Shown: one piece after another, positions 4,905 to 25,303 of the stretch
How positions within the stretch are numbered: the first letter of the stretch is position 1
How the letters are laid out: every line of letters begins with the position of its first letter
Source: Pseudomonadales bacterium
GTDB lineage: Bacteria; Patescibacteriota; Microgenomatia; UBA1400; PJMF01
DNA length: 57,482 bases
Direction of reading: 5' to 3'
NCBI GenBank assembly: GCA_020632255.1
Contig: JACKFX010000001.1
Coordinates: 124,734 to 182,215 of the forward strand
The notes under the pieces: generated by a model
The model's input: only the letters and a program-made list of their open reading frames with translations
The model's database searches: none
What the model was told of the DNA's origin: nothing
Made by a program: the position numbers and the translations under genes

Positions 4905-6140
4905 TTAGTCAAGATCTGCCAACGCCTCTTGTGGCATCATGATTTTTTTTGGAGTGACGAAAAGAAGGAAGATGCTTATACAAAATAAAAGTAATCCTAA
5001 AATAGAAAATGAAACAGGGATACCTACGATGGAAGCCAAGAATGTGCCAAGAATTGGTCCGATTACATAGGCTAAACTACTTGAGGATCCCTGCAGTCCA
5101 ATCATTTCGGAATCATCATTTTTGAGTCGGCTCACATAGTCTTCGAAGGTGGCTTTAATTTCTGGGACTGCTATGCCGAGCAACACTGAAATAATCATTG
5201 TAATTATCAGTAACATTGGCACAGATGGCGTGATGGCGTACAATGCTAGGAATGCCCCCGCAAGAATGCTGGAAATGAGAGCGGTTTTTTTCTTTCCGAA
5301 AGGAAAAGGTAGTGATCCTAAGAAGAGACTTACCACTGCTGCGGGCACGATGTAGGCAGAAAGTAAAAAGGCTCCCAGCGAGTGTTGGTGGCTCAAATCT
5401 TCCATTAAGAGTGCTCCAATTGTCCAAAAACTGGCATCTATGGTATAGACGGCTATTTGTAGGACTAAAAGAGGCCATACTCTTTGTGCTAATACTTTCC
5501 AGATTCTAAATTCTGCCGCCCATGATTTTGTGGGTTTTTCTCTATAAATGTGATGTGCTTGTGTGTTTACAAACGCAACTTTAAAGAATATTGTCAAAAA
5601 AACTGCAATACCGAGAAATGCAAATACCGCATAAAATCCTGGCTCAAACATATCTTTAATCAAAAATGCTGCGATAGGGGGAGCTATGCCGTATGCAGCG
5701 GATTGAAAAGCCTGAAGAATCCCCCATGCTCGAGTATGTTCTTGTACGTGGACGTACTTGTGCACAAATTGAAATGACGAAAACATGTTGAGTTCAAAGT
5801 ACAGTCCCCAAATCGCCATTGCAAAAATGAGGGTCATGACGTGTTGTGGGAAAAACAAAAGTGTTCCAGGAAACAAAATTGCAGATAGCACTGTGACTTT
5901 TAGATAGAAGAAGTGTTGTTTTTGGGAAAAAATCTTAGGAAAAACCATATCGCATATGATCCCAACCACCGATGAAAAGGAAAAAATAATTCCCATTAGA
6001 GTTAGATCATTAACTTGAGACTCAATAAAGACAGGGCTAATGTAGGACATGATTGCATCTGCAAACGAGATCAAAAAAAAGATCACTACAAATGAGATAA
6101 AAACAGAGAGCTTGGGTTGTAAGCCCACTTTTTGATGCAT
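4905..6140 (-). CDS. Major facilitator superfamily transporter
   Basis: About 12 hydrophobic segments in MFS arrangement. Start moved to MHQKVG at 6140 because the upstream 104 codons of the ORF track do not look like MFS sequence. Confidence 0.85.
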   Translation of the reverse strand: MHQKVGLQPKLSVFISFVVIFFLISFADAIMSYISPVFIESQVNDLTLMGIIFSFSSVVGIICDMVFPKIFSQKQHFFYLKVTVLSAILFPGTLLFFPQHVMTLIFAMAIWGLYFELNMFSSFQFVHKYVHVQEHTRAWGILQAFQSAAYGIAPPIAAFLIKDMFEPGFYAVFAFLGIAVFLTIFFKVAFVNTQAHHIYREKPTKSWAAEFRIWKVLAQRVWPLLVLQIAVYTIDASFWTIGALLMEDLSHQHSLGAFLLSAYIVPAAVVSLFLGSLPFPFGKKKTALISSILAGAFLALYAITPSVPMLLIITMIISVLLGIAVPEIKATFEDYVSRLKNDDSEMIGLQGSSSSLAYVIGPILGTFLASIVGIPVSFSILGLLLFCISIFLLFVTPKKIMMPQEALADLD

Positions 6141-15300: not shown

Positions 15301-16746
15301 CTAGTATGCCTGGGCAAACAGCCAACGATGGTTTGCACTCTTACCACAGTGTACACACTTACCCTGCTCTTCTTCAACTGCACCATGAGCAGATGTAAAT
15401 GGTAGACATCGAGTAGTTGCTTTGGTTTCCTCTTTTATTTTGGCTTCGCATACCTCATCTTCACACCAAAATGCTTTAATGAAGCCTCGGTTTGCAGACA
15501 TGATTTGCTTAAACTCATTGAAGGTATTCGCTTCAAACGTTAGGGCATCTTGGCGTTCTTTTGCGGCTCTAAAGAGATTTGTTTGAATAGTCTCAAGCAG
15601 TTCAGGGATACTCTTTTCAAGGTTTGAGATCTCAAGTGATTGTTTTTCATGCGTGTAGCGAACGACTGCGGTTACAGTGTTCTCTGCTAGTTCTCGTGCA
15701 CCAACAATTAATGAAACAGGAATACCTTCAAGCTCTGCATCATTGAGTTTCCACCCCAGTGAGGTTGTGTCATCAATGTTCATTTCAACACGAACACCAG
15801 ACTTTTTAAGTGTATCAACGATTGTTTTCACTACTTCTATGGCTTGAGCATCTTTGCTAGCGTTCATTACAAGAACTTGCGTAGGCGCAACTCTTGGAGG
15901 TAGGACCAAGCCTTCATCATCACCGTGGGTCATGATGAGAGCTCCCAAGATTCTGGTTGAGAGACCCCAACTATTTTGCCACACATACTGAGTAGAATCA
16001 TTTTCATCTTGGAAAGAAATATTGAAAGCATGTATTTTAGAAAAATTTTGTCCTAGATGATGGCTGGTACCAGATTGAAGCGCTTTACCGTCTGGCATTA
16101 ATGCTTCGATAGTTATGGTTACATCTGCTCCAGCAAATTTTTCTGACTCACTCTTTCGACCCTTAATAACAGGAATTGCTAAGTAATCTTCAGCAATTGA
16201 ACGATAGGTCTCAAGCGCCTCGTACATGGTATCGAGAGCTTCTTCTTGGGTAGCGTGGGCACTGTGTGCTTCTTGCCACAAGAATTCTGTGGTACGCAAG
16301 AAGAAGCTAGTACGTTTTTCCCATCTAACCACGTTATTCCATTGGTTAATTTTGATTGGTAAATCTCGATGTGATTGTATCCACTTACTGTACATGTGGT
16401 ACATGATTGTTTCTGAAGTCGGACGCACGACAAGTTTCTCGACAAGCTCTTCTCCTCCAGCGTGAGTGACCACAGCTAACTCAGGTGCGAAACCCTCAAC
16501 GTGATCGGCTTCTTTCTCGAGGAAAGACATCGGAATAAAGATAGGAAAGTACGCATTGCGAACTTTCATCTTATCGAGCATTGGTTGATAGTTCTTTTGA
16601 ATATTCTCCCAAAGACCATAGCCATTTGGACGAATCACCATACACCCTTTGACCGGTGAGTAATCTGCCAGCTTAGCTTGCTGGATGACTTGGGTATACC
16701 ATTTGCTCATGCTTTCAGATTTTGGTGTTAGATCTCGTTTAGCCAT
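15301..16746 (-). CDS. proS: Prolyl-tRNA synthetase, archaeal/eukaryote-like type
   Basis: WYTQVIQQAKLADYSPVKGCMVIRP, RPTSET, FLRTTEFLWQEAH, SWGLSTR; C-terminal Zn motif CVHCGK; no INS editing domain. Confidence 0.97.
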   Translation of the reverse strand: MAKRDLTPKSESMSKWYTQVIQQAKLADYSPVKGCMVIRPNGYGLWENIQKNYQPMLDKMKVRNAYFPIFIPMSFLEKEADHVEGFAPELAVVTHAGGEELVEKLVVRPTSETIMYHMYSKWIQSHRDLPIKINQWNNVVRWEKRTSFFLRTTEFLWQEAHSAHATQEEALDTMYEALETYRSIAEDYLAIPVIKGRKSESEKFAGADVTITIEALMPDGKALQSGTSHHLGQNFSKIHAFNISFQDENDSTQYVWQNSWGLSTRILGALIMTHGDDEGLVLPPRVAPTQVLVMNASKDAQAIEVVKTIVDTLKKSGVRVEMNIDDTTSLGWKLNDAELEGIPVSLIVGARELAENTVTAVVRYTHEKQSLEISNLEKSIPELLETIQTNLFRAAKERQDALTFEANTFNEFKQIMSANRGFIKAFWCEDEVCEAKIKEETKATTRCLPFTSAHGAVEEEQGKCVHCGKSANHRWLFAQAY

Positions 16747-16775
16747 GATTCCTTTCTGTTTCTGGGACTGTACCT

Positions 16776-17036
16776 AAAAAAATAACCCCAGTAAACACAT
16801 ATTTCGTGTTTACAAGGGCTCTCTTGTGAGGGCGGTACCACCTTGTATTTTTCTGGGTATTACTACTCAGAACTTTGTGACTGTCCAAGAGGAGCAGTCT
16901 AGCATATGGTGTCGGGTGCCAGCCGGATATGTTAGCAGTCTTCTCTAAAGAATCCCTGGTTCCACATCGGTTCTCGCAGTGAAGCGACTGTGTGTTAGGA
17001 GCACACAGTATGCGCACCTTGCGCACTAAACCATTA
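16776..17036 (-). promoter_or_regulatory. T-box riboswitch leader of proS
   Basis: Antiterminator UACAAGG-UGGUACC-GCCCUC-ACAA-GAGAGC-CCUUGUA overlaps a terminator hairpin with a U-tract; TATAAT at 17042-17047. Confidence 0.88.
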
Positions 17037-17091
17037 ATGTCATTATACAAAACATTTGGACATCAAACCAGTAGCAATCTTAATAAGACTG

Positions 17092-17991
17092 TTACATCCA
17101 AGCATTTAAGACTTCGGCAAAGAGAGGTGAAGCATCAACAACAGTAACCTTTTCGGGTAAGGATTCATGAGAAATGCTATTGGTGATTACTATGCTGTCT
17201 ATGCTGTCAGTTTGAATACTATCAAGTGCGTTATCAGTGAAAACGCCATGGGTAACTAAAATATGGACTTCGCTGGCTCCTTTTTCTTTAAGGAGCCTAC
17301 TTACTTCAACAACTGTATTGCCAGATAAAATTGAATCGTCAAAAACAACGACTTTTTTACCTTCTACACTTCCACCTTGCATAGAGTTGACACTCACCTC
17401 ACCTGTTGCCAAGTTTCGATGCTTGTCAATATTTACCAGATTAACCCCAAGTGTATCAGCAAACTTACGTGCGCGTTTGAGGCCACCAAAATCAGGACTG
17501 GCTACTACTAGTGATTCAGTTCCAAAGTTGGTTTTGACGTAGTCTGCAAATAGCTCGTTGGCAGAAAGATTTTGCGTTGGAATTGAGAAAAAACCAGGTA
17601 CGCTGCTGTTATGCAAATCAAGTAAAGCAACTCGTTTTACATAGCTATTGGAAACAAGATCTGCCACAACTTTGGCAGCAATTGGTTCTCCAGTTCTAAA
17701 AACTTTGTCTTGAAGGGAGTAGCCCATCCATGGAATGACTGCATTGACATGACGAACTCCGAGTCGTTCAAGTGCATCAGTAATCAGCAAAAACTCCATG
17801 ATGTTTTCATCCGTTGGATGAGAAAAAGACTGAACAAAAACAACGTTCTCACCTGCGAGCTGGTCTTTAATCCAAACTCGTTTTTCCCCATTGGAAAATG
17901 TTGAGATATCAACGGCAACTGACTCTATCCCCAAGTGTTTTTGAAGCGATTGGGCAAATGCGGAGTGTGATGAGCCAGTAATGATTTTCAT
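17092..17991 (-). CDS. prs: Ribose-phosphate pyrophosphokinase
   Basis: FSNGEKRV, IPWMGYSLQDK, LDLHN, VASPDFGG, VFDDSILSGNT, VTHGVF. Confidence 0.97.
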   Translation of the reverse strand: MKIITGSSHSAFAQSLQKHLGIESVAVDISTFSNGEKRVWIKDQLAGENVVFVQSFSHPTDENIMEFLLITDALERLGVRHVNAVIPWMGYSLQDKVFRTGEPIAAKVVADLVSNSYVKRVALLDLHNSSVPGFFSIPTQNLSANELFADYVKTNFGTESLVVASPDFGGLKRARKFADTLGVNLVNIDKHRNLATGEVSVNSMQGGSVEGKKVVVFDDSILSGNTVVEVSRLLKEKGASEVHILVTHGVFTDNALDSIQTDSIDSIVITNSISHESLPEKVTVVDASPLFAEVLNAWM

Positions 17992-18020
17992 ACTGACTAT
18001 TGTACCTCATTACCCTTCTT

Positions 18021-20963
18021 TTAGCCATGATGCTCGGGAGCATCGATCAATCCACATTTTTTGTATTTCAATCCACTCCCGCAAGGACATGGATCATTAC
18101 GCTTAATCTTAGCTTTTTTAACTCCAGGAGTCGCTTTTTTAGTAGCTTTGGCTGAACCCAGTGCAGATGCTAGGTCTCCAAGTGAGCCTTGAGTCGTTTG
18201 AGGGGCTTTCCTTTGTACAGTGGCTTCGACATTTGAGACAGCAGCAGCCAAGTTTGAGCTCGATTCTGCCTTTTGTTCAACAGCTTGCTTTTGAGGTGCA
18301 TTTTCTACTTTTTGTTGGACACCTCTGAGTTGTACTCGGAAAAGTTTGTTAGCAATGGTGCTTTGAATAGAGTTGATTAAGTCTTCAAACATAGCAAATC
18401 CTTCTTTCTTATATTCCGATAAGACCGTCTTTTTGTCACCACGGAGCCAAATACCTTCACGGAGCGAATCCATGGCATCTAAGTGATCCATCCACTTTTC
18501 ATCGATGGTTGAAAGAGTCACGAGTCTTTCAAGTGTAGATAAATGTTCTTCTCCAAGGGCTTTCTCACGGGACTCATATGCATCAAGAGCAATCTTAATG
18601 AGAGTTTCTTCAAGATCATCAGCAGTAGTGAGAGTTTTGACCAACTGTTGCTGTGAAGCATGATCAAATGGAATGAGTTTGGAGAATTCATTTACTAGTT
18701 CGTGGTATTCTTCGTTTTCGCCTTCTGTTGGAGCATGGAGCGCCGCAATACCGCGAACTTCGTCCTCGATGTAACCGAGAATTTGATCGTGAAGACTTTC
18801 TTGGTCTTCTCCAACATTTTTAGTACTTGCCTGTGTAAGCAATCGACGGCGGCGTTCATAAATAATTTCACGCTGTTTGTTCATGACGTCATCAAACTCT
18901 ACTAAGCGTTTGCGTTGGTCAAAGAAGAAGCCCTCAACTTTTACCTGTGCTGACTCAATCGATTTACTAACCATGCCATGCTCGATAGGCTGGTTTTCAT
19001 CAATTTTGAGCATGTCCATGACTTTAGCAATTTGTTCGCCACCGAAAATGCGCATGATTTCATCTTCGAGTGCCACAAAGAATTGTGACGCACCTGGATC
19101 ACCTTGACGACCAGAACGACCACGAAGCTGGTTATCAATACGGCGTGATTCATGACGCTCGGTGCCCAACACGAAAAGTCCACCAAGTTTCTTAACTTCA
19201 TCATGTTCTTGTTTCCAAGTATCTAGGTCTTTCGCATAGGCTGAAAGTTTATAGTTGAGTGGATTGACTGAAGGCGGCACTTGAACGCCAAACTCCTCCA
19301 GGAGTTCTTTGCGTTCTTTTATAGTGGGTTGAGATGTGGCACGAGTTTTTTTGCGATATTCCTTGAGCTCTGGAGCTGCTCCCCCCAGTACGATATCGAC
19401 TCCACGACCGGCAATGTTTGTTGCCACAGTGATGGCACCCTTTTTACCAGCATCAGAAATTATGAATGCTTCTTTCTCATGGTTTTTTGCATTCAAAATT
19501 TGGTGAGGAATATTTTTACGCTTCAAGAAGCTTGAAATAATTTGGTTATGTTCAATCGATTTGGTACCAATCAAAATTGGTTGACCAGTTGCATGAATTC
19601 GAGCGACTTCCGAACTGATCGCAGAGTACTTGGCTGCAGTGGTTTTATAGACAATGTCGGGCTTATCTTCACGAATAACTGGTTTATTTGTTGGTACAAC
19701 CAGCACTTCGATCCCGTAGATTTGCATGAATTCTTCTGCTTCAGTTTGAGCCGTACCAGTCATACCGCTTAGCTTTTTGTAGAGACGGAAGTAGTTCTGG
19801 ATTGAAATAGTGGCTAGAGTGCGAGATTCGTTCTGAATGGTGGCACCCTCTTTTGCTTCGATAGCCTGATGTAAACCATCAGAGTAGCGACGTCCATACA
19901 TCAATCGACCAGTGTGTTCATCAACAATGATAACCTCACCTTCACGGACAATGTAGTCCTTATCGCGCTTGAAAATTGTTTTTGCCTTAAGTGCAGATTC
20001 AATGTGGTGGATAGTATCAAAACTTTCCTCATAAAGGTTTGAAACACCAAGTTTTTTCTCAATTCGTTTAACACCAAGATCTGTTAAGGTAACTGAGCGA
20101 GCTTTTTCGTCAATTGTGTAGTCCACATCTCTGGCAAGGATGGTGACCATTTTAGCGTAATCGTAGTACTGTTTTGTTGGTGTGGCGTCTGGGGCAGAAA
20201 TAATCAATGGGGTACGAGCTTCATCGATCAAAATTGAGTCTGCTTCGTCAACAATGGTGTAGTGATGCGCGTTATCAAAACGTTGAACCATTTGTTCTTC
20301 TTGTTGCACCATGTTGTCGCGAAGGTAATCAAAACCGAACTCATTATTTGTTCCGTAGGTGATGTCCGCTGCGTAGGCTTCTCGGCGGCTGATATTCTGG
20401 AAGTGCTCAAGACGTTCATCACCGCGTTCTTCACTATCAATTTCAGGGTTATAGAGGCGTGAGTGGTCGTGCACAATTACAGCAATTGAAAGGCCGAGGA
20501 AGTGGTAGACTGGTCCCATCCAACCTGTGCCGAGCTCTGCTAGGTAGTCATTGACGGTAATTAAATGAGCACCCTTGCCAAGTAACGCATTAAGATACAA
20601 AGGAGCGGTAACGGTGAGTGTTTTACCTTCACCTGTACGCTGCTCGGTGATCATACCTTTGTGTAGCGCAATTCCTGCAATCAATTGGACGTCATAGTGA
20701 CGCATACCCAGTACACGACGACTGGCTTCACGTACGGTTGCAAATGCTTCTGGTAAAAGCTCATCCAGCACTTCTGCTTCAGTTTTGCCGTTTTGTATGC
20801 TTTCTGCGATGCGTTTTTTGAACTCCTGCGTTTTTTTAGCAAGTTGGTTGTCGGTGAGTTTTTGAAAATCTGGTTCAATTGTATTAATTTTATCAACAAT
20901 TCCTTGAAAAGAATCAAGATTCTTTTTATTATCGTCAAAGAGGTTGGAAATGAATTTAAACAT
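18021..20963 (-). CDS. secA: Preprotein translocase subunit SecA
   Basis: RTGEGKTL, DEADSILIDEARTPLIIS, GMTGTA, ATNIAGRGVDI, RRIDNQLRGRSGRQGDPG; SEC-C motif RNDPCPCGSGLKYKKC. Confidence 0.99.
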   Translation of the reverse strand: MFKFISNLFDDNKKNLDSFQGIVDKINTIEPDFQKLTDNQLAKKTQEFKKRIAESIQNGKTEAEVLDELLPEAFATVREASRRVLGMRHYDVQLIAGIALHKGMITEQRTGEGKTLTVTAPLYLNALLGKGAHLITVNDYLAELGTGWMGPVYHFLGLSIAVIVHDHSRLYNPEIDSEERGDERLEHFQNISRREAYAADITYGTNNEFGFDYLRDNMVQQEEQMVQRFDNAHHYTIVDEADSILIDEARTPLIISAPDATPTKQYYDYAKMVTILARDVDYTIDEKARSVTLTDLGVKRIEKKLGVSNLYEESFDTIHHIESALKAKTIFKRDKDYIVREGEVIIVDEHTGRLMYGRRYSDGLHQAIEAKEGATIQNESRTLATISIQNYFRLYKKLSGMTGTAQTEAEEFMQIYGIEVLVVPTNKPVIREDKPDIVYKTTAAKYSAISSEVARIHATGQPILIGTKSIEHNQIISSFLKRKNIPHQILNAKNHEKEAFIISDAGKKGAITVATNIAGRGVDIVLGGAAPELKEYRKKTRATSQPTIKERKELLEEFGVQVPPSVNPLNYKLSAYAKDLDTWKQEHDEVKKLGGLFVLGTERHESRRIDNQLRGRSGRQGDPGASQFFVALEDEIMRIFGGEQIAKVMDMLKIDENQPIEHGMVSKSIESAQVKVEGFFFDQRKRLVEFDDVMNKQREIIYERRRRLLTQASTKNVGEDQESLHDQILGYIEDEVRGIAALHAPTEGENEEYHELVNEFSKLIPFDHASQQQLVKTLTTADDLEETLIKIALDAYESREKALGEEHLSTLERLVTLSTIDEKWMDHLDAMDSLREGIWLRGDKKTVLSEYKKEGFAMFEDLINSIQSTIANKLFRVQLRGVQQKVENAPQKQAVEQKAESSSNLAAAVSNVEATVQRKAPQTTQGSLGDLASALGSAKATKKATPGVKKAKIKRNDPCPCGSGLKYKKCGLIDAPEHHG

Positions 20964-21070
20964 ACGATTCTTTCTGATTGTGCGGGTGTGTTCGAAGGGT
21001 AATTATACCCCACTCCGCTGTGCATTTATAGCAGAAACTCGAGTTAAAATGAAGGCCCGGTTGCGTTGAC

Positions 21071-21099
21071 TGTGCGCCAGGCAGTATGCCTGGCGCACA
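21071..21099. repeat. REP-like palindrome just downstream of the serS stop
   Basis: TGTGCGCCAGGCA-GTA-TGCCTGGCGCACA, 13-bp perfect inverted repeat. Confidence 0.85.
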
Positions 21100-21111
21100 T
21101 CCTCACCGAGT

Positions 21112-22389
21112 TCATTTTTTAGTTATGCGATCTGTTCCCACAAAGTCCCGCAGGACTTCTGGTACCACAATACTGCCATCAGCTTGCTGATAGTTTTCAA
21201 TTACCGCAGCTAGTAAACGTGGAGTTGCTGCCATAGTGTTATTTAAGGTGTACACGTGTTTTGTTGTACCATCTTTTGCCTGATACTTAATGCCTAGCCG
21301 GCGTGACTGAAAGTCATTAAAGTAACTGGCTGAGTGGGTTTCGCGATACTTATTTTGGCCTGGGAACCAAGTTTCAATGTCATACTTTTTGCGTTGTCCT
21401 GCCCCCATATCTCCTGTACACATTAACAGAACCTGGTATGAAAGACCGAGGTCTTTTAGAAGTTGTTCGGCAAATGCAGTCATTTTTTCGTGCCACTTCT
21501 GAGTTTCTTCTTCGTCAGCCACTGTGTAGACCACTTGCTCAACTTTATTGAACTGGTGGACACGAATGATACCCTGGGTATCTTTTCCATGTGTTCCGAC
21601 TTCGCGGCGGAAACATGGTGAGATACCTACCATCTTGACTGGCAAGTCGGCTTCTGTTAGGGTTTCCCCCATTCGATATGCTGTGAGTGCAACTTCGGCA
21701 GTTCCTGCTAAAATTTGGCCATCTTGAGTTTTGTAATGGTCCTCTACTCCCCAAGGGAAGTAACCGGTTCCTTCCATGGCATCGTGGTTAACTAAAATTG
21801 GAGCGGTGAATGGCGTAAAGCCCTCTTTAGTCAGCAACTTCATGGCATAGGCAAGAATCGCTTGTTCTAGTAAGACGGCTTCATTCTTGAGAAAATAGCT
21901 TCTAAATCCACCAATGCGGACAGCTCGAACAGTATCGACAAGATCTAACGCTTCCATGAGCTCATGGTGTTGTTTTGGTTCAAAATCGAAGGTGGGCACG
22001 TCACCAACAGTGCGAACAACAACATTACCTTCTTCATCTTCACCAACTGGAACTTCTTCTGCAGGAACATTGGGAATGCTGTACATAAGTGTAGTGAAGT
22101 CTTCTTCGGCTATCTTGAGTTCAGGTTCAATTGCTTGTAGCTGTGTTTTGATATCTTTTCCTTTTGCAATTAACTCAACTGAGGGCTTACCTTGCTGCGC
22201 AACCTCCTGTTTGACTGCATCTGCATTTTGATTAGCTCGCTGACGGAGACCATCTACTTCAACCTGAAGTTTACGGCGTCTTTCATCCACAGCCAATAGT
22301 TCAGCCACAACTGAAACATCGAGCTGTTTATTCTTGCAAGCTGTTTCGACTGTTTTTTGGTTATCTCTGATGAATTGAATATCCAACAT
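21112..22389 (-). CDS. serS: Seryl-tRNA synthetase
   Basis: MLDIQFIR start, N-terminal coiled coil, GTAEV, FRREVGTHGKDTQGIIRVHQFNKVEQ, TLNNT, IENYQQADG. Confidence 0.98.
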   Translation of the reverse strand: MLDIQFIRDNQKTVETACKNKQLDVSVVAELLAVDERRRKLQVEVDGLRQRANQNADAVKQEVAQQGKPSVELIAKGKDIKTQLQAIEPELKIAEEDFTTLMYSIPNVPAEEVPVGEDEEGNVVVRTVGDVPTFDFEPKQHHELMEALDLVDTVRAVRIGGFRSYFLKNEAVLLEQAILAYAMKLLTKEGFTPFTAPILVNHDAMEGTGYFPWGVEDHYKTQDGQILAGTAEVALTAYRMGETLTEADLPVKMVGISPCFRREVGTHGKDTQGIIRVHQFNKVEQVVYTVADEEETQKWHEKMTAFAEQLLKDLGLSYQVLLMCTGDMGAGQRKKYDIETWFPGQNKYRETHSASYFNDFQSRRLGIKYQAKDGTTKHVYTLNNTMAATPRLLAAVIENYQQADGSIVVPEVLRDFVGTDRITKK

Positions 22390-22449
22390 AGCACCCTTTC
22401 TGCACATCTTGTGCAAAGATATTTATACTGTGCTTTGTAGTTGAGGTAC

Positions 22450-22620
22450 AAAAAAACTCTTACCCACGGCCACAAAGCTATGAAGTAAGAGGGTTCAAGT
22501 TTGTGACAAGAACGGTGCCACCTCTTTATACTCATTCCAGCTGTGACGGGCATACCCGGCATGGTTTTTGACCCCATGCAGCATTGGCAGGTGCTAGCTA
22601 CCTCAAGTGCTTTTTTTTAA
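22450..22620 (-). promoter_or_regulatory. Compact T-box riboswitch leader of serS
   Basis: Antiterminator AAGAGG-UGGCACC-GUUC...GAAC-CCUCUU; terminator CUCUUAC...GUAAGAG-U7; stem IIA/B-like CGGGUAUGCCCGUCACAGC; TGCTATACT at 22628-22636. Confidence 0.92.
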
Positions 22621-22785
22621 TAGGAGTAGTATAGCAGAAATTAGTTTTTTGTGAAGTTAGTAGGCAGATCCTTTTTTGTGAGTTTTAGGATGGTCACCAT
22701 ACGCCCCTGAATTAAATAGATCTTCACTTGCTTTTTGTGAAAGTTCATCTTGTATCTGACTTGGTGTAGGAGTTCTTGGAAGAGC

Positions 22786-23157
22786 TCATTTTTTTCCTAC
22801 AGCTAAAGCAGCTTCTTGTTCTGCTATTTCAGCTGGGGCAAGGTATCTTTTACCTCGTTGCCATTTTTCCCAGTCTGATATAGCATTGAAAATTGGATCG
22901 AGTTCTGCTCTCACTCTTTCATCAATTTCCATATGGTACGTGTATTCTGTTGCGCCAAGTAACGCATCTTGCATTGCTACACGGAGCTGTTGAGCTGCAG
23001 CCAATTCTCTTGCTTCATGAGTTTGTTCAACTTGAAGGCGTTTACCAATAAGGCGATGGTCACTCTCTCTATGACGTGGTGACTTTTCCCGATGAATCTG
23101 TTTTCTTGGGGTGAGGTGTACGTCTGTTGCTGGAAAATATTCTCTTGGTCTTTGCAC
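22786..23157 (-). CDS. Hypothetical protein
   Basis: ORF of about 123 aa; GTG at 23157 lies 8 nt after TGCTATTCT; no recognised motif. Confidence 0.55.
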   Translation of the reverse strand: MQRPREYFPATDVHLTPRKQIHREKSPRHRESDHRLIGKRLQVEQTHEARELAAAQQLRVAMQDALLGATEYTYHMEIDERVRAELDPIFNAISDWEKWQRGKRYLAPAEIAEQEAALAVGKK

Positions 23158-23215: not shown

Positions 23216-25303
23216 TTATTTTGAAAAGACTTCAATCAAAAAGGCAAAATGTTCATCAGCAGTCTTGCCAATTAACTCCAACCCTTCAGCAATGTCTTCT
23301 CTACTTACATTGGCTGCAAAGGCTTTAGCCTTGAGTTTCTTCTTGATAGATTTTGGTTTCATACCTTCAAGACCAGTTGGTCGCATCAGTGCGATAGCAT
23401 TGATAAAACCAGAGATTTCGTCACAGGCAAATAAATATCGATCTAAGGTTGTGATTGGTTCGCGTCCTGTTCTACTTGGTGCGTGCGCAGCAATGGCATC
23501 AAGAAGCGGTTGTGGATACTCTTTCAAAATTTCATTGATGGCTCTGTTTGGATGCTCATCGGGATACATCTCCCAGTCTAGGTCATGCAGGAGGCCGGTT
23601 TGGTACCAGAGTTCTACATCTTCACCAAGTTCCTGTGCATACGCTTCCATAGCTTGAGCTACCATGCGGCAATGTTTTCGTAGGGCTTCATCTTTGATAT
23701 ATTTTTCTACCAAAGTTTCGGCTTGCTCACGTGGAGGGATTTCAACTGATTCAGTTTTAGAAGTTTTTGAGGTTCCTGCATTAATTGAAGTGAGCGGGCG
23801 TAAAGTTGGGAAGGCGATAACTTCTTTAATGCTCCAAGTGTTAGTAAGGAACATAACCAGACGATCTATTCCCATACCAATTCCACCAAGTGGTGGCATA
23901 CCATGTTCCATAGCTTCGAGAAAGTCTTCATCAAGTGGGTGAGCTTGGGTGTCTCCATGACGCATATTAGTTTGCTCATTTTCCCAAATCTTGCGTTGGT
24001 CAACGGCGTCAACGATCTCACTCCAACCGTCGGCAAGTTCTTTTCCGCCGATGTAGGCTTCAAAGCGCTCTGCAAACTCAGGGTTGCTACGGTGTTGTTT
24101 TGAAAGTGGAGAAATATCGCGTGGGTAGTCAACAATCCAGATTGGAGCAATTAAGTGTGGGGTGACTAACTCATCAAAAAGTTCAAACAATGCTTTTCCT
24201 CGAGTGTACTCACTTTTGAGTTCAATTTTGTGCTCTGCCATTAAAGCTTTCACCTCAGCATCACTCAAAGATTCAAAGTCGATGTTGGCGTGCTGTTTGA
24301 GGGCTTCATCCATGCGTACTCGAGGCCATTTACCCCCAATGTCGATGGTTTTTTCACCAACGATGATTTCATAGTTCCCATAAAGCTTATGTGCCAGGTG
24401 TTTAACTAATGCTTCAGCAACATTCATTATTCGAGTGTAGTCAGCATAAGATTCGTACCATTCAATCATGGTGAATTCAGGTTGGTGGGTTTGGTCAATT
24501 CCCTCATTTCGAAAGTTACGTGCAATCTCAAAGACTCTATCGTATCCACCCACAATCAGCCGTTTTAGATAAAGCTCTGGGGCGATACGAAGGTAAAAAT
24601 CACTATCAAGCGCATCCATGTGGGTAGTAAATGGTGTTGCATTGGTTCCACCATAAAGTGGTTGGAGAATTGGAGTTTCAACCTCCACAAAGTCATGGCT
24701 ATCCTGCAGGAAACGTCGAATTTCTTTTTCAATCAGCCAACGAGCGTCCAAGACACGTTTGGTTTCTGGATTAATGAGCATATCTAGATACCGTTTTCTG
24801 AAACGAACCTCTTTACTGTCTGCAGCATTAAAGGCAGTTGGAATTGGGCGAAGAGCTTTTGAGAGTAAGGTGATTTCTTTAGCAAGAATAGTAATTTCAC
24901 CAGTCCTTGTGGTGATAACAGTGCCTGTCACCCCGAGGTAATCTCCGCGGTCAGTGAGGTTTTTGAGCCAGTCAAAGCTATTTTCAGTAATTTCTCCTTG
25001 TCTGACCATGACTTGAATGTTGGTGGTTGAGTCTTGGAGATCTGCAAAGATTACTTTTCCATGCGCCCGAACAGACATAATCCGTCCTGCAGTGGTCACT
25101 TCTTGGTCCATCATTTCACGAACTTCAGCAATAGTGTTTTGTTTATCGAAAAAATGAGGGTGAACGTTAATGCCCAGCCCTTCGAGCTGAGCACGTTTTT
25201 CTTTTTTGGCTTGAATTGTTTCGTCCATTCGTGACATACCGGCAGTCCTTCTTGAGTTTCGTACTTGGTCTTTTTGGTTATTTTCTGCGTTTTGATTATA
25301 CAT
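23216..25303 (-). CDS. lysS: Class II lysyl-tRNA synthetase fused to a C-terminal HD-domain hydrolase
   Basis: OB domain (AGRIMSVRAHGK), FVEVETP, YLRIAPELYLKRL, FRNEG..THQPEFT, GIGMGIDRL; then about 170 aa with KHCRMV...GLLHDLD. Start may be 25237. Confidence 0.95.
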   Translation of the reverse strand: MYNQNAENNQKDQVRNSRRTAGMSRMDETIQAKKEKRAQLEGLGINVHPHFFDKQNTIAEVREMMDQEVTTAGRIMSVRAHGKVIFADLQDSTTNIQVMVRQGEITENSFDWLKNLTDRGDYLGVTGTVITTRTGEITILAKEITLLSKALRPIPTAFNAADSKEVRFRKRYLDMLINPETKRVLDARWLIEKEIRRFLQDSHDFVEVETPILQPLYGGTNATPFTTHMDALDSDFYLRIAPELYLKRLIVGGYDRVFEIARNFRNEGIDQTHQPEFTMIEWYESYADYTRIMNVAEALVKHLAHKLYGNYEIIVGEKTIDIGGKWPRVRMDEALKQHANIDFESLSDAEVKALMAEHKIELKSEYTRGKALFELFDELVTPHLIAPIWIVDYPRDISPLSKQHRSNPEFAERFEAYIGGKELADGWSEIVDAVDQRKIWENEQTNMRHGDTQAHPLDEDFLEAMEHGMPPLGGIGMGIDRLVMFLTNTWSIKEVIAFPTLRPLTSINAGTSKTSKTESVEIPPREQAETLVEKYIKDEALRKHCRMVAQAMEAYAQELGEDVELWYQTGLLHDLDWEMYPDEHPNRAINEILKEYPQPLLDAIAAHAPSRTGREPITTLDRYLFACDEISGFINAIALMRPTGLEGMKPKSIKKKLKAKAFAANVSREDIAEGLELIGKTADEHFAFLIEVFSK

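Follow-up and report, generated by a model that had tools for sequence, protein, structure and literature searches.

The window (the whole stretch of DNA analysed, 57,482 nucleotides) encodes on its minus strand a seryl-tRNA synthetase whose 425-amino-acid product is identical in four public assemblies. Its gene, serS, is preceded at a distance of ~60 nt by a leader, running from 22655 to 22450, that has the parts of a T-box (Table 1). An earlier note, made from the letters of the window, had described a very compact T-box here with ~100 nt between transcription start and bulge. Sequence inspection located all the motifs listed in that note on the minus strand, and the compact T-box was borne out by these motifs, by covariation and by homologues. 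The serS promoter is the top promoter-like match across positions 16600-22800, and its -10 element is kept in L001, L004, L011, L015 and L040. Transcription likely starts at ~22621, ~100 nt ahead of the bulge, and the base of Stem I and the end of the antiterminator are ~125 nt apart. The sequence GGTGGNACC occurs 4 times, against 0.6 expected. Directly upstream of the promoter lies a 129-codon open reading frame, found at the same position in four independent assemblies, for which neither NCBIfam nor Pfam gave a match. Two genes upstream of serS, after greA, is a lysyl-tRNA synthetase gene without a T-box of its own; its 695-amino-acid product carries a C-terminal HD/HDIG phosphohydrolase domain.

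Table 1. Coordinates of the serS and proS leaders and of neighbouring genes in the window.
Feature	Position	Strand	Description	Basis
serS promoter	22628..22655	-	-35 TTCACA (22655-22650), 16-nt spacer, extended -10 TGcTATACT (22636-22628)	10/12 match, TG present
Stem I	22580..22611	-	32 nt: base AGCA/UGCU, K-turn-like loop, 5-bp GGUAG/CUGCC, 7-nt apical loop CUAGCAC	MFE fold, covariation, homologues
Stem I base	22611-22608 with 22583-22580	-	4 bp, AGCA with UGCU	
K-turn-like loop of Stem I		-	bulge CUU, then G22604•A22584 and A22603•A22585	
Stem I specifier hairpin	22602-22598, 22597-22591, 22590-22586	-	GGUAG, loop CUAGCAC, CUGCC	
Specifier codon	22593..22595	-	AGC (Ser), loop positions 3-5, then purine A22592	serS-leader codon counts
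Short Stem II	22559..22579	-	6-bp hairpin GCAUGG/CCAUGC, loop GGUCAAAAA, no S-turn	covariation, top mutual-information pairs
Stem IIA/B	22540..22558	-	CGGGUAUGCCCGUCACAGC: CGGG-UAUG-CCCG, F-box CCCGUCA, AGC linker	alignment to RF00230 columns
IIA/B with F-box	22558-22544	-	CGGGUAUGCCCGUCA	
Linker	22527..22539	-	UGGAAUGAGUAUA, 13 nt, purine-rich; RRRxG…AA strings kept, Stem III down to ~3 nt	sequence
Antiterminator	22487..22526	-	A1 AAGAGG/CCUCUU, 7-nt bulge UGGCACC, A2 GUUC/GAAC	-7.5 kcal/mol
A1 helix	22526-22521 with 22492-22487	-	AAGAGG with CCUCUU	
T-box bulge	22520-22514	-	UGGCACC	
Intrinsic terminator	22450..22491	-	hairpin 22491-22457 (-14.9 kcal/mol), U7 22456-22450	folding
serS	21112..22400	-	SD GAAAGGG 22400-22394, ATG at 22389, CDS 425 aa	NCBIfam serS 6.9e-135
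Open reading frame, 129 aa	22786-23175	-		
Lysyl-tRNA synthetase gene	23216-25303	-	695 aa	
proS leader	16776..17047	-	second T-box leader; terminator and U-run ending at 16776	motif search; loop comparison with L200, L201
proS -10	17047-17042	-	TATAAT	
proS specifier hairpin	17008-16988	-	CUGUGUG-[CUCCUAA]-CACACAG	
proS specifier codon	16999-16997	-	CCU	
proS T-box bulge	16840-16834	-	UGGUACC	
ProRS gene	15301-16746	-		

Stem I of the serS leader presents a Ser codon AGC in a hairpin loop, as the earlier note had proposed, but the register AGGU-[AGCUAGC]-ACCU drawn there is off by 1-3 nt. It is ruled out in favour of GGUAG/CUGCC by the closest homologue (L001, GAUAG-[UUAGCAG]-CUAUC), by all the other homologues and by the MFE fold of 22614-22531, which reproduces Stem I. 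In this register the specifier is therefore the second AGC, and the layout of its loop (pyrimidine, U, codon, purine, N) resembles that of an anticodon loop. The base of Stem I is K-turn-like, a feature that had been overlooked. The K-turn is imperfect: the window sequence AGCA-CUU-GA…AA-UGCU gives G•A followed by A•A at 2b•2n, whereas L001 has the canonical tandem GA/GA, and many relatives have A at 1b (AA on the bulged strand). We rejected a closing junction helix between GCUG (22582-22579) and CAGC (22544-22541), since GCU is taken up by the 5' AGC in the Stem I base, the arrangement of canonical T-boxes, and this base covaries. Nine other serS leaders (L003, L004, L011, L017, L040, L170, L177, L180 and L181) carry a further hairpin, inserted after the specifier hairpin and ahead of the 3' strand of the Stem I base, so that a three-way junction results. 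This hairpin is absent from the window leader and from L001.

Three modules familiar from other T-boxes are missing downstream of, or within, this Stem I. The stem ends at the specifier loop, without an internal specifier loop, AG bulge or distal loop, so that there is no IDTM. The hairpin GCAUGG..CCAUGC, recognized in the earlier note, was confirmed as a Stem II of 6 bp closed by the loop GGUCAAAAA, and it lacks the S-turn that supplies the 5-purine string in Class I and Class III. Among the matches listed, the S-turn motif GAAGAA…AGUAGA was found in 37/40 ileS leaders, in 3 of 21 bacterial-type aspS leaders and in none of 29 serS leaders; the Stem II loop, of 8-9 nt, fits NGU(N2-4)AA in 31/44. 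Stem III is absent as well, with just 13 nt and no helix between the IIA/B element and A1, and 68 of the 115 relatives among the matches listed have ≤20 nt at this site, which leaves no room for a Stem III. The purines that flank the Stem III site are nevertheless kept, as GAAUG…AA in the window and as GGAA followed by RAG in 43/44. The IDTM and the S-turn, singly or together, are stated to strengthen tRNA binding in T-boxes. In current models, transcriptional T-boxes rely on the elbow-binding IDTM to capture tRNA fast, and Stem III is needed to sense the 3' end. According to a 2020 review, Stem III is 'indispensable' and transcriptional T-boxes cannot do without the IDTM (PMC7583486), and the modules described as necessary comprise the IDTM for transcriptional T-boxes, the S-turn where Stem I is short, and Stem III (PMC7583486, PMC10482949). 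Because the serS leader lacks all three, tRNA capture within the time window of transcription remains unproven for it.

Beyond the missing modules, the 3' half of the leader looks like that of a transcriptional T-box. The IIA/B criterion, including the F-box, is met by CGGGUAUGCCCGUCA, and the IIA/B plus F-box element together with the T-box bulge ties the leader to the T-box family. The antiterminator AAGAGG/CCUCUU and the overlapping terminator with U7 were both confirmed; A1 and A2 of the window were evaluated by hand because the automatic finder chose a wrong, long alternative there. The 5' arm of the terminator takes five of the six nucleotides of the A1 3' strand, CCUCUU, and the antiterminator and terminator are thus mutually exclusive. 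As the two folds share this strand and the terminator is predicted to be the more stable (-14.9 versus -7.5 kcal/mol), the default state of the leader would be OFF. The SD of serS lies ~50 nt downstream of U7 and is unpaired with any leader segment.

SerRS-based retrieval placed the window in Patescibacteria/CPR, the closest record being a Candidatus Pacebacteria MAG with 86% SerRS identity. The same leader was found at 8 of the closest ~17 serS loci and at 0 of ~60 serS loci of Parcubacteria or Saccharibacteria type. Further relatives were gathered from genome contigs with the IIA/B plus F-box pattern, which gave at least 119 stretches and, among the matches listed, ~120 non-redundant leaders. 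Patescibacteria MAGs account for nearly all the relatives listed, and one genome often has several; two of the leaders are canonical T-boxes of Clostridia. Among the matches listed, the downstream gene encodes IleRS in 40 leaders, SerRS in 29, bacterial-type AspRS in 21, ValRS in 6, archaeal-type non-discriminating AspRS in 5, and TrpRS, AlaRS, PheS and PEP carboxylase in one each. CPR-type serS genes with leaders, 66-72% identical to the window, are also carried by L003-L005, L009, L010, L040, L082, L104, L117 and many others, and the labels on such records ('uncultured Pseudomonadales', 'Gammaproteobacteria', 'Limisphaerales', 'Vitreimonas', 'Methylococcaceae', or bins of these names) look wrong.

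Some of the downstream genes are unusual in themselves. The PEP carboxylase gene (L140, 5627-7414 (+)) is of archaeal type and a non-synthetase target; it follows a T-box with an S-turn Stem II, the specifier of which is probably GAC (Asp). A CPR IleRS of 1166 amino acids (L153, 3787-7284 (+)) has a histidine-phosphatase/phosphoglycerate-mutase-like domain inserted at residues ~515-693, and an AspRS (L183, 3595-5430 (-)) ends in a C-terminal YbaK/EbsC deacylase domain.

The comparison suggested in the earlier note, whether the loop codon tracks the downstream gene, was run on the listed leaders with a matrix of codons in hairpin loops, each codon being counted together with a following purine, and it was passed. 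Among the matches listed, AUC was present in 34/40 ileS leaders, GAC in 17/20 aspS leaders and GUC in 3/5 valS leaders, and 28/29 serS leaders carried AGC (17) or UCC (11) with the purine. Non-cognate codons mostly stayed at ≤15%, reaching ~28% for AAG in ileS leaders (again among the matches listed). Two aspS leaders, L155 (~5993-6101 (-)) and L173, have the Asn codon AAC in place of GAC in the specifier loop, and L155 is otherwise nearly identical to L101. Their specifiers seem to have switched to tRNA-Asn, to suit a non-discriminating AspRS.

A second match to the tRNA is found at the bulge. Among the matches listed, the last base of UGGN was C in most Ser (24/29) and Asp (18/21) leaders and U in most Ile (30/38) and Val (5/6) ones. 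Three CPR tRNA-Ser genes (CGA, UGA and GCU) end in G73-CCA, and one CPR tRNA-Val has A73. The claim that the bulge C of the window, in UGGC, fits G73 of tRNA-Ser thus agrees with these CPR genes; the tRNA-Ser genes of this genome itself lie outside the window.

The secondary structure was assessed with a covariance model built from 15 leaders, to which 50 short-hairpin leaders were aligned. Two homologous leaders not used in building the model, L013 and L015, scored E=4e-18 and 6e-16. Over the 50 leaders, 97.1% of cells were paired against 73.3% in shuffles, the covariation score was 0.523 against 0.135 (with 0/500 shuffles as high), and sliding the partners cut pairing to 20-46%. Double changes were seen at 14/14 variable pairs; the base and upper helix of Stem I and all six pairs of Stem II covary. 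In an independent scan, the top nine mutual-information pairs were those of Stem II and the Stem I base, and no extra tertiary pairs, such as between the Stem II loop and other regions, were found. Pair counts come from a model-fitted alignment, in ~10 rows of which the 'upper helix' was set on the inserted second hairpin. The IIA/B columns are invariant by construction, because the comparative set was collected with the IIA/B pattern. The fold of the whole leader was no more stable than shuffles (z = -1.04), as expected for a bistable switch, yet this lends no support.

Terminators are widespread in the family. Among the matches listed, 92/115 leaders (at least 80%) have a hairpin plus U-run that begins inside the antiterminator, by a criterion (hairpin ≤-8 kcal/mol ending within 2 nt of a U-run) that misses obvious cases such as L001; a stricter one (A1 3' strand only, first U-run) under-counted them, at 40/115. 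These hairpins have a median of -17.8 kcal/mol and end in a U-run a median of 34.5 nt from the start codon, and the A1-bulge-A2 layout, with covarying pairs, is common to 94/111 relatives among the matches listed. The earlier reading of a minimal variant coupled to a terminator is upheld for the window leader, which is more reduced than that reading had it.

The window contains a second T-box leader, before proS. A generic T-box scan of the window returned none besides that of serS; it missed the proS leader because of a mismatch in the A2 helix, and this leader was found by motif search. Its 7-nt loop CUCCUAA stays the same in the window, L200 and L201, on three stems that differ entirely. 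The proS leader has the 7-nt apical specifier loop and the terminator in common with the serS leader, but its ~190 nt include a Stem III and a middle domain of another kind. The wider leader family serves Ile, Val, Asp/Asn, Ser, Trp and Pro, so the idea of use for at least two amino acids is upheld several times over, although not with the proS leader as an example of the same compact architecture. A candidate second bulge in the proS leader (GCUGGCACC near 16917; CCGGCUGGCACCCGA at ~16909-16925 (-)) was discarded, its UGG being AAG or AGG in L200/L201; the site at ~16909-16925 is more likely an IIA-like hairpin (CGG…CCG plus AAA/ACA). ProRS itself is of the archaeal/eukaryote-like type (TIGR00408), and, leaving aside six CPR loci, the closest relatives within the genome collection come from DPANN archaea (Woesearchaeota and Nanoarchaeota), at 41-48% identity (L204-L236).

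The element before serS is T-box-like in its working and of common ancestry with the T-box family, with function inferred. We consider it very probable that the leader is a minimal tRNA-Ser(GCU)-sensing T-box transcription attenuator, for which tRNA binding and antitermination are inferred and experimental data are lacking. Transcription would start near 22621, and the apical 7-nt loop of the short Stem I would then present AGC and the following purine to the tRNA anticodon, while the K-turn-like bend, the 6-bp hairpin and the IIA/B element would orient the 3' half of the leader. The bulge UGGC could pair with the free GCCA-3' end of uncharged tRNA-Ser, stabilizing the weak antiterminator and allowing RNA polymerase to read into serS; if the tRNA is charged or absent, the stronger terminator and its U7 would form and transcription would stop. 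Beside the anatomy, the mutual exclusion of the two predicted folds, the covariation, the matching of codon to gene and of UGGN to discriminator, and the absence of IDTM, S-turn and Stem III, all of which are observed at the level of sequence, the read-out as termination with aminoacylation-sensitive read-through is an inference. Likewise inferred is that the A-rich loop conserved in the short hairpin (NGU..AA) takes the place of the S-turn purines in their groove-binding or stabilizing role; to read U-N-N-N-A in the Stem II loop as T-loop-like is no more than an idea.

Having lost three modules reported as essential, and giving no RF00230 match at E≤10, the leader might instead be a decayed T-box remnant, working as a constitutive attenuator or one regulated otherwise (by NTP levels or a protein, for instance) and binding no tRNA. 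Such decay is hard to reconcile with a gene-matched specifier kept over two Ser codons (AGC and UCC) among SerRS proteins that are only 60-86% identical, with the UGGN-discriminator match, the purine after the codon and the retained RRRxG…AA strings, or with compensatory changes in every variable helix, and we hold it to be unlikely. Still less credence is due to a class III-type T-box acting on translation, the 3' hairpin of which would be a sequestrator and not a terminator. Class III, which is mostly translational, is recognized by its short Stem I and apical specifier (PMC10482949), and in a minority of the listed relatives the U-run falls within a few nucleotides of the start codon (-18 to +7.5 nt at the 5th to 25th percentiles). 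In the window, however, the hairpin is followed by U7 and the SD is ~50 nt further downstream and unpaired with the leader, and the 92/115 listed relatives with hairpin and U-run have their start codon at the median distance of 34.5 nt given above.

A chance likeness to T-box motifs, arising in an AT-rich stretch between genes, for which the unremarkable whole-leader stability (z = -1.04) could be cited, is refuted in practice by conservation in many genomes with covariation, by the codon-gene matrix and by a motif count above expectation.

The leader had been called possibly undescribed, and it does appear to be uncatalogued. RF00230 gave no match on the serS leader at the gathering threshold (93 bits) or at E≤10, and Rfam scans at both settings over the serS and proS leaders returned no T-box; weak gltS, DapZ and NsiR1 matches at the proS leader are terminator look-alikes. 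As positive controls, the Clostridia leaders L151 and L116 scored 83 and 56 bits and a CPR valS leader 46 bits, all under the gathering threshold of 93, and five other CPR leaders gave no RF00230 match. In L151 and L116 the IIA/F-box columns of RF00230 align with the IIA/B pattern. The short-Stem-I model of TBDB was run only on Actinobacteria and Rfam hits (PMC7778990). Our literature search, in which subscription literature was outside the scope, found no paper combining T-box with CPR or Patescibacteria names. Such leaders are missed by standard annotation (Rfam and TBDB).

Whether these leaders make up a fifth architectural class of T-box is, in our judgement, evenly balanced. Such a class would be a transcriptional switch of ~115-125 nt, with an anticodon-loop-like apical specifier loop as its only tRNA recognition, a new conserved hairpin-loop motif (NGU..AA) in place of the S-turn and a discriminator without Stem III; together with the S-turn-bearing, terminator-coupled ileS/valS versions, it would constitute a multi-gene aaRS regulon in Patescibacteria. 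If the leaders are functional, co-transcriptional tRNA sensing can do without each of the IDTM, S-turn and Stem III, and this is the smallest natural T-box scaffold. A conserved, covarying, terminator-coupled family without all three modules makes the claims of their necessity directly testable, and would offer structural studies and the engineering of tRNA sensors a natural scaffold of very small size. With function inferred, it would also mean that genome-reduced CPR bacteria, usually deemed regulation-poor, keep tRNA-charging feedback on several synthetase genes.

By the class definitions of PMC7583486 and PMC10482949, the serS leader is outside all four published T-box classes, and its nearest neighbour is class III, that of actinobacterial ileS (N. 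farcinica, PDB 6UFM; M. tuberculosis, PDB 6UFG). Both have a short Stem I without IDTM and an apical specifier, set above a K-turn in class III and above an imperfect, K-turn-like loop in the window, the IIA/B element (its pseudoknot in the window being inferred) with a near-identical F-box (CCGUCA in N. farcinica, PMC7583486) and a UGGN bulge with A1 and A2. The 'ileS-type sensor' of the earlier note is therefore half right: the IIA/B element is like that of the actinobacterial ileS type, but the S-turn that defines this sensor is absent, and Stem III with it. Where class III requires the S-turn, the window has a 6-bp hairpin with an 8-9-nt loop; unlike class III it has no Stem III, and its apical loop has 7 nt where that of class III has 5-6. 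For an expression platform it has an intrinsic terminator in place of an SD sequestrator, and the SD sequestration criterion of class III is not met, the U7 terminator lying ~50 nt upstream of a free SD. Gene and host differ as well (serS in Patescibacteria versus ileS in Actinobacteria). CPR ileS/valS relatives (such as L086, L096 and L081) keep the S-turn and are class III-like, yet terminator-coupled.

With Class I (the B. subtilis tyrS type; RF00230), the window leader has in common the inferred attenuation logic, a K-turn (only K-turn-like in the window), IIA/B and F-box, the T-box sequence and a terminator overlapping the antiterminator, and the specifiers (AGC/UCC for Ser, CCU for Pro, GAC for Asp, AUC for Ile) are typical of that class. 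Its departures from Class I are the lack of the internal specifier loop and of the AG bulge and distal loop (IDTM), of the S-turn and of Stem III, and a length of ~125 nt, where RF00230 has 219 consensus positions. For scale, the ileS construct of M. tuberculosis is 166 nt long (PMC11297988). Class II (glyQS) resembles the window in its reduced build and transcriptional action, the Stem II domain being dispensable in glyQS. The two reductions are opposite, however: the glycine-specific glyQS keeps a long Stem I with IDTM and a Stem III and drops IIA/B, whereas the serS leader does without the IDTM and Stem III and retains IIA/B.
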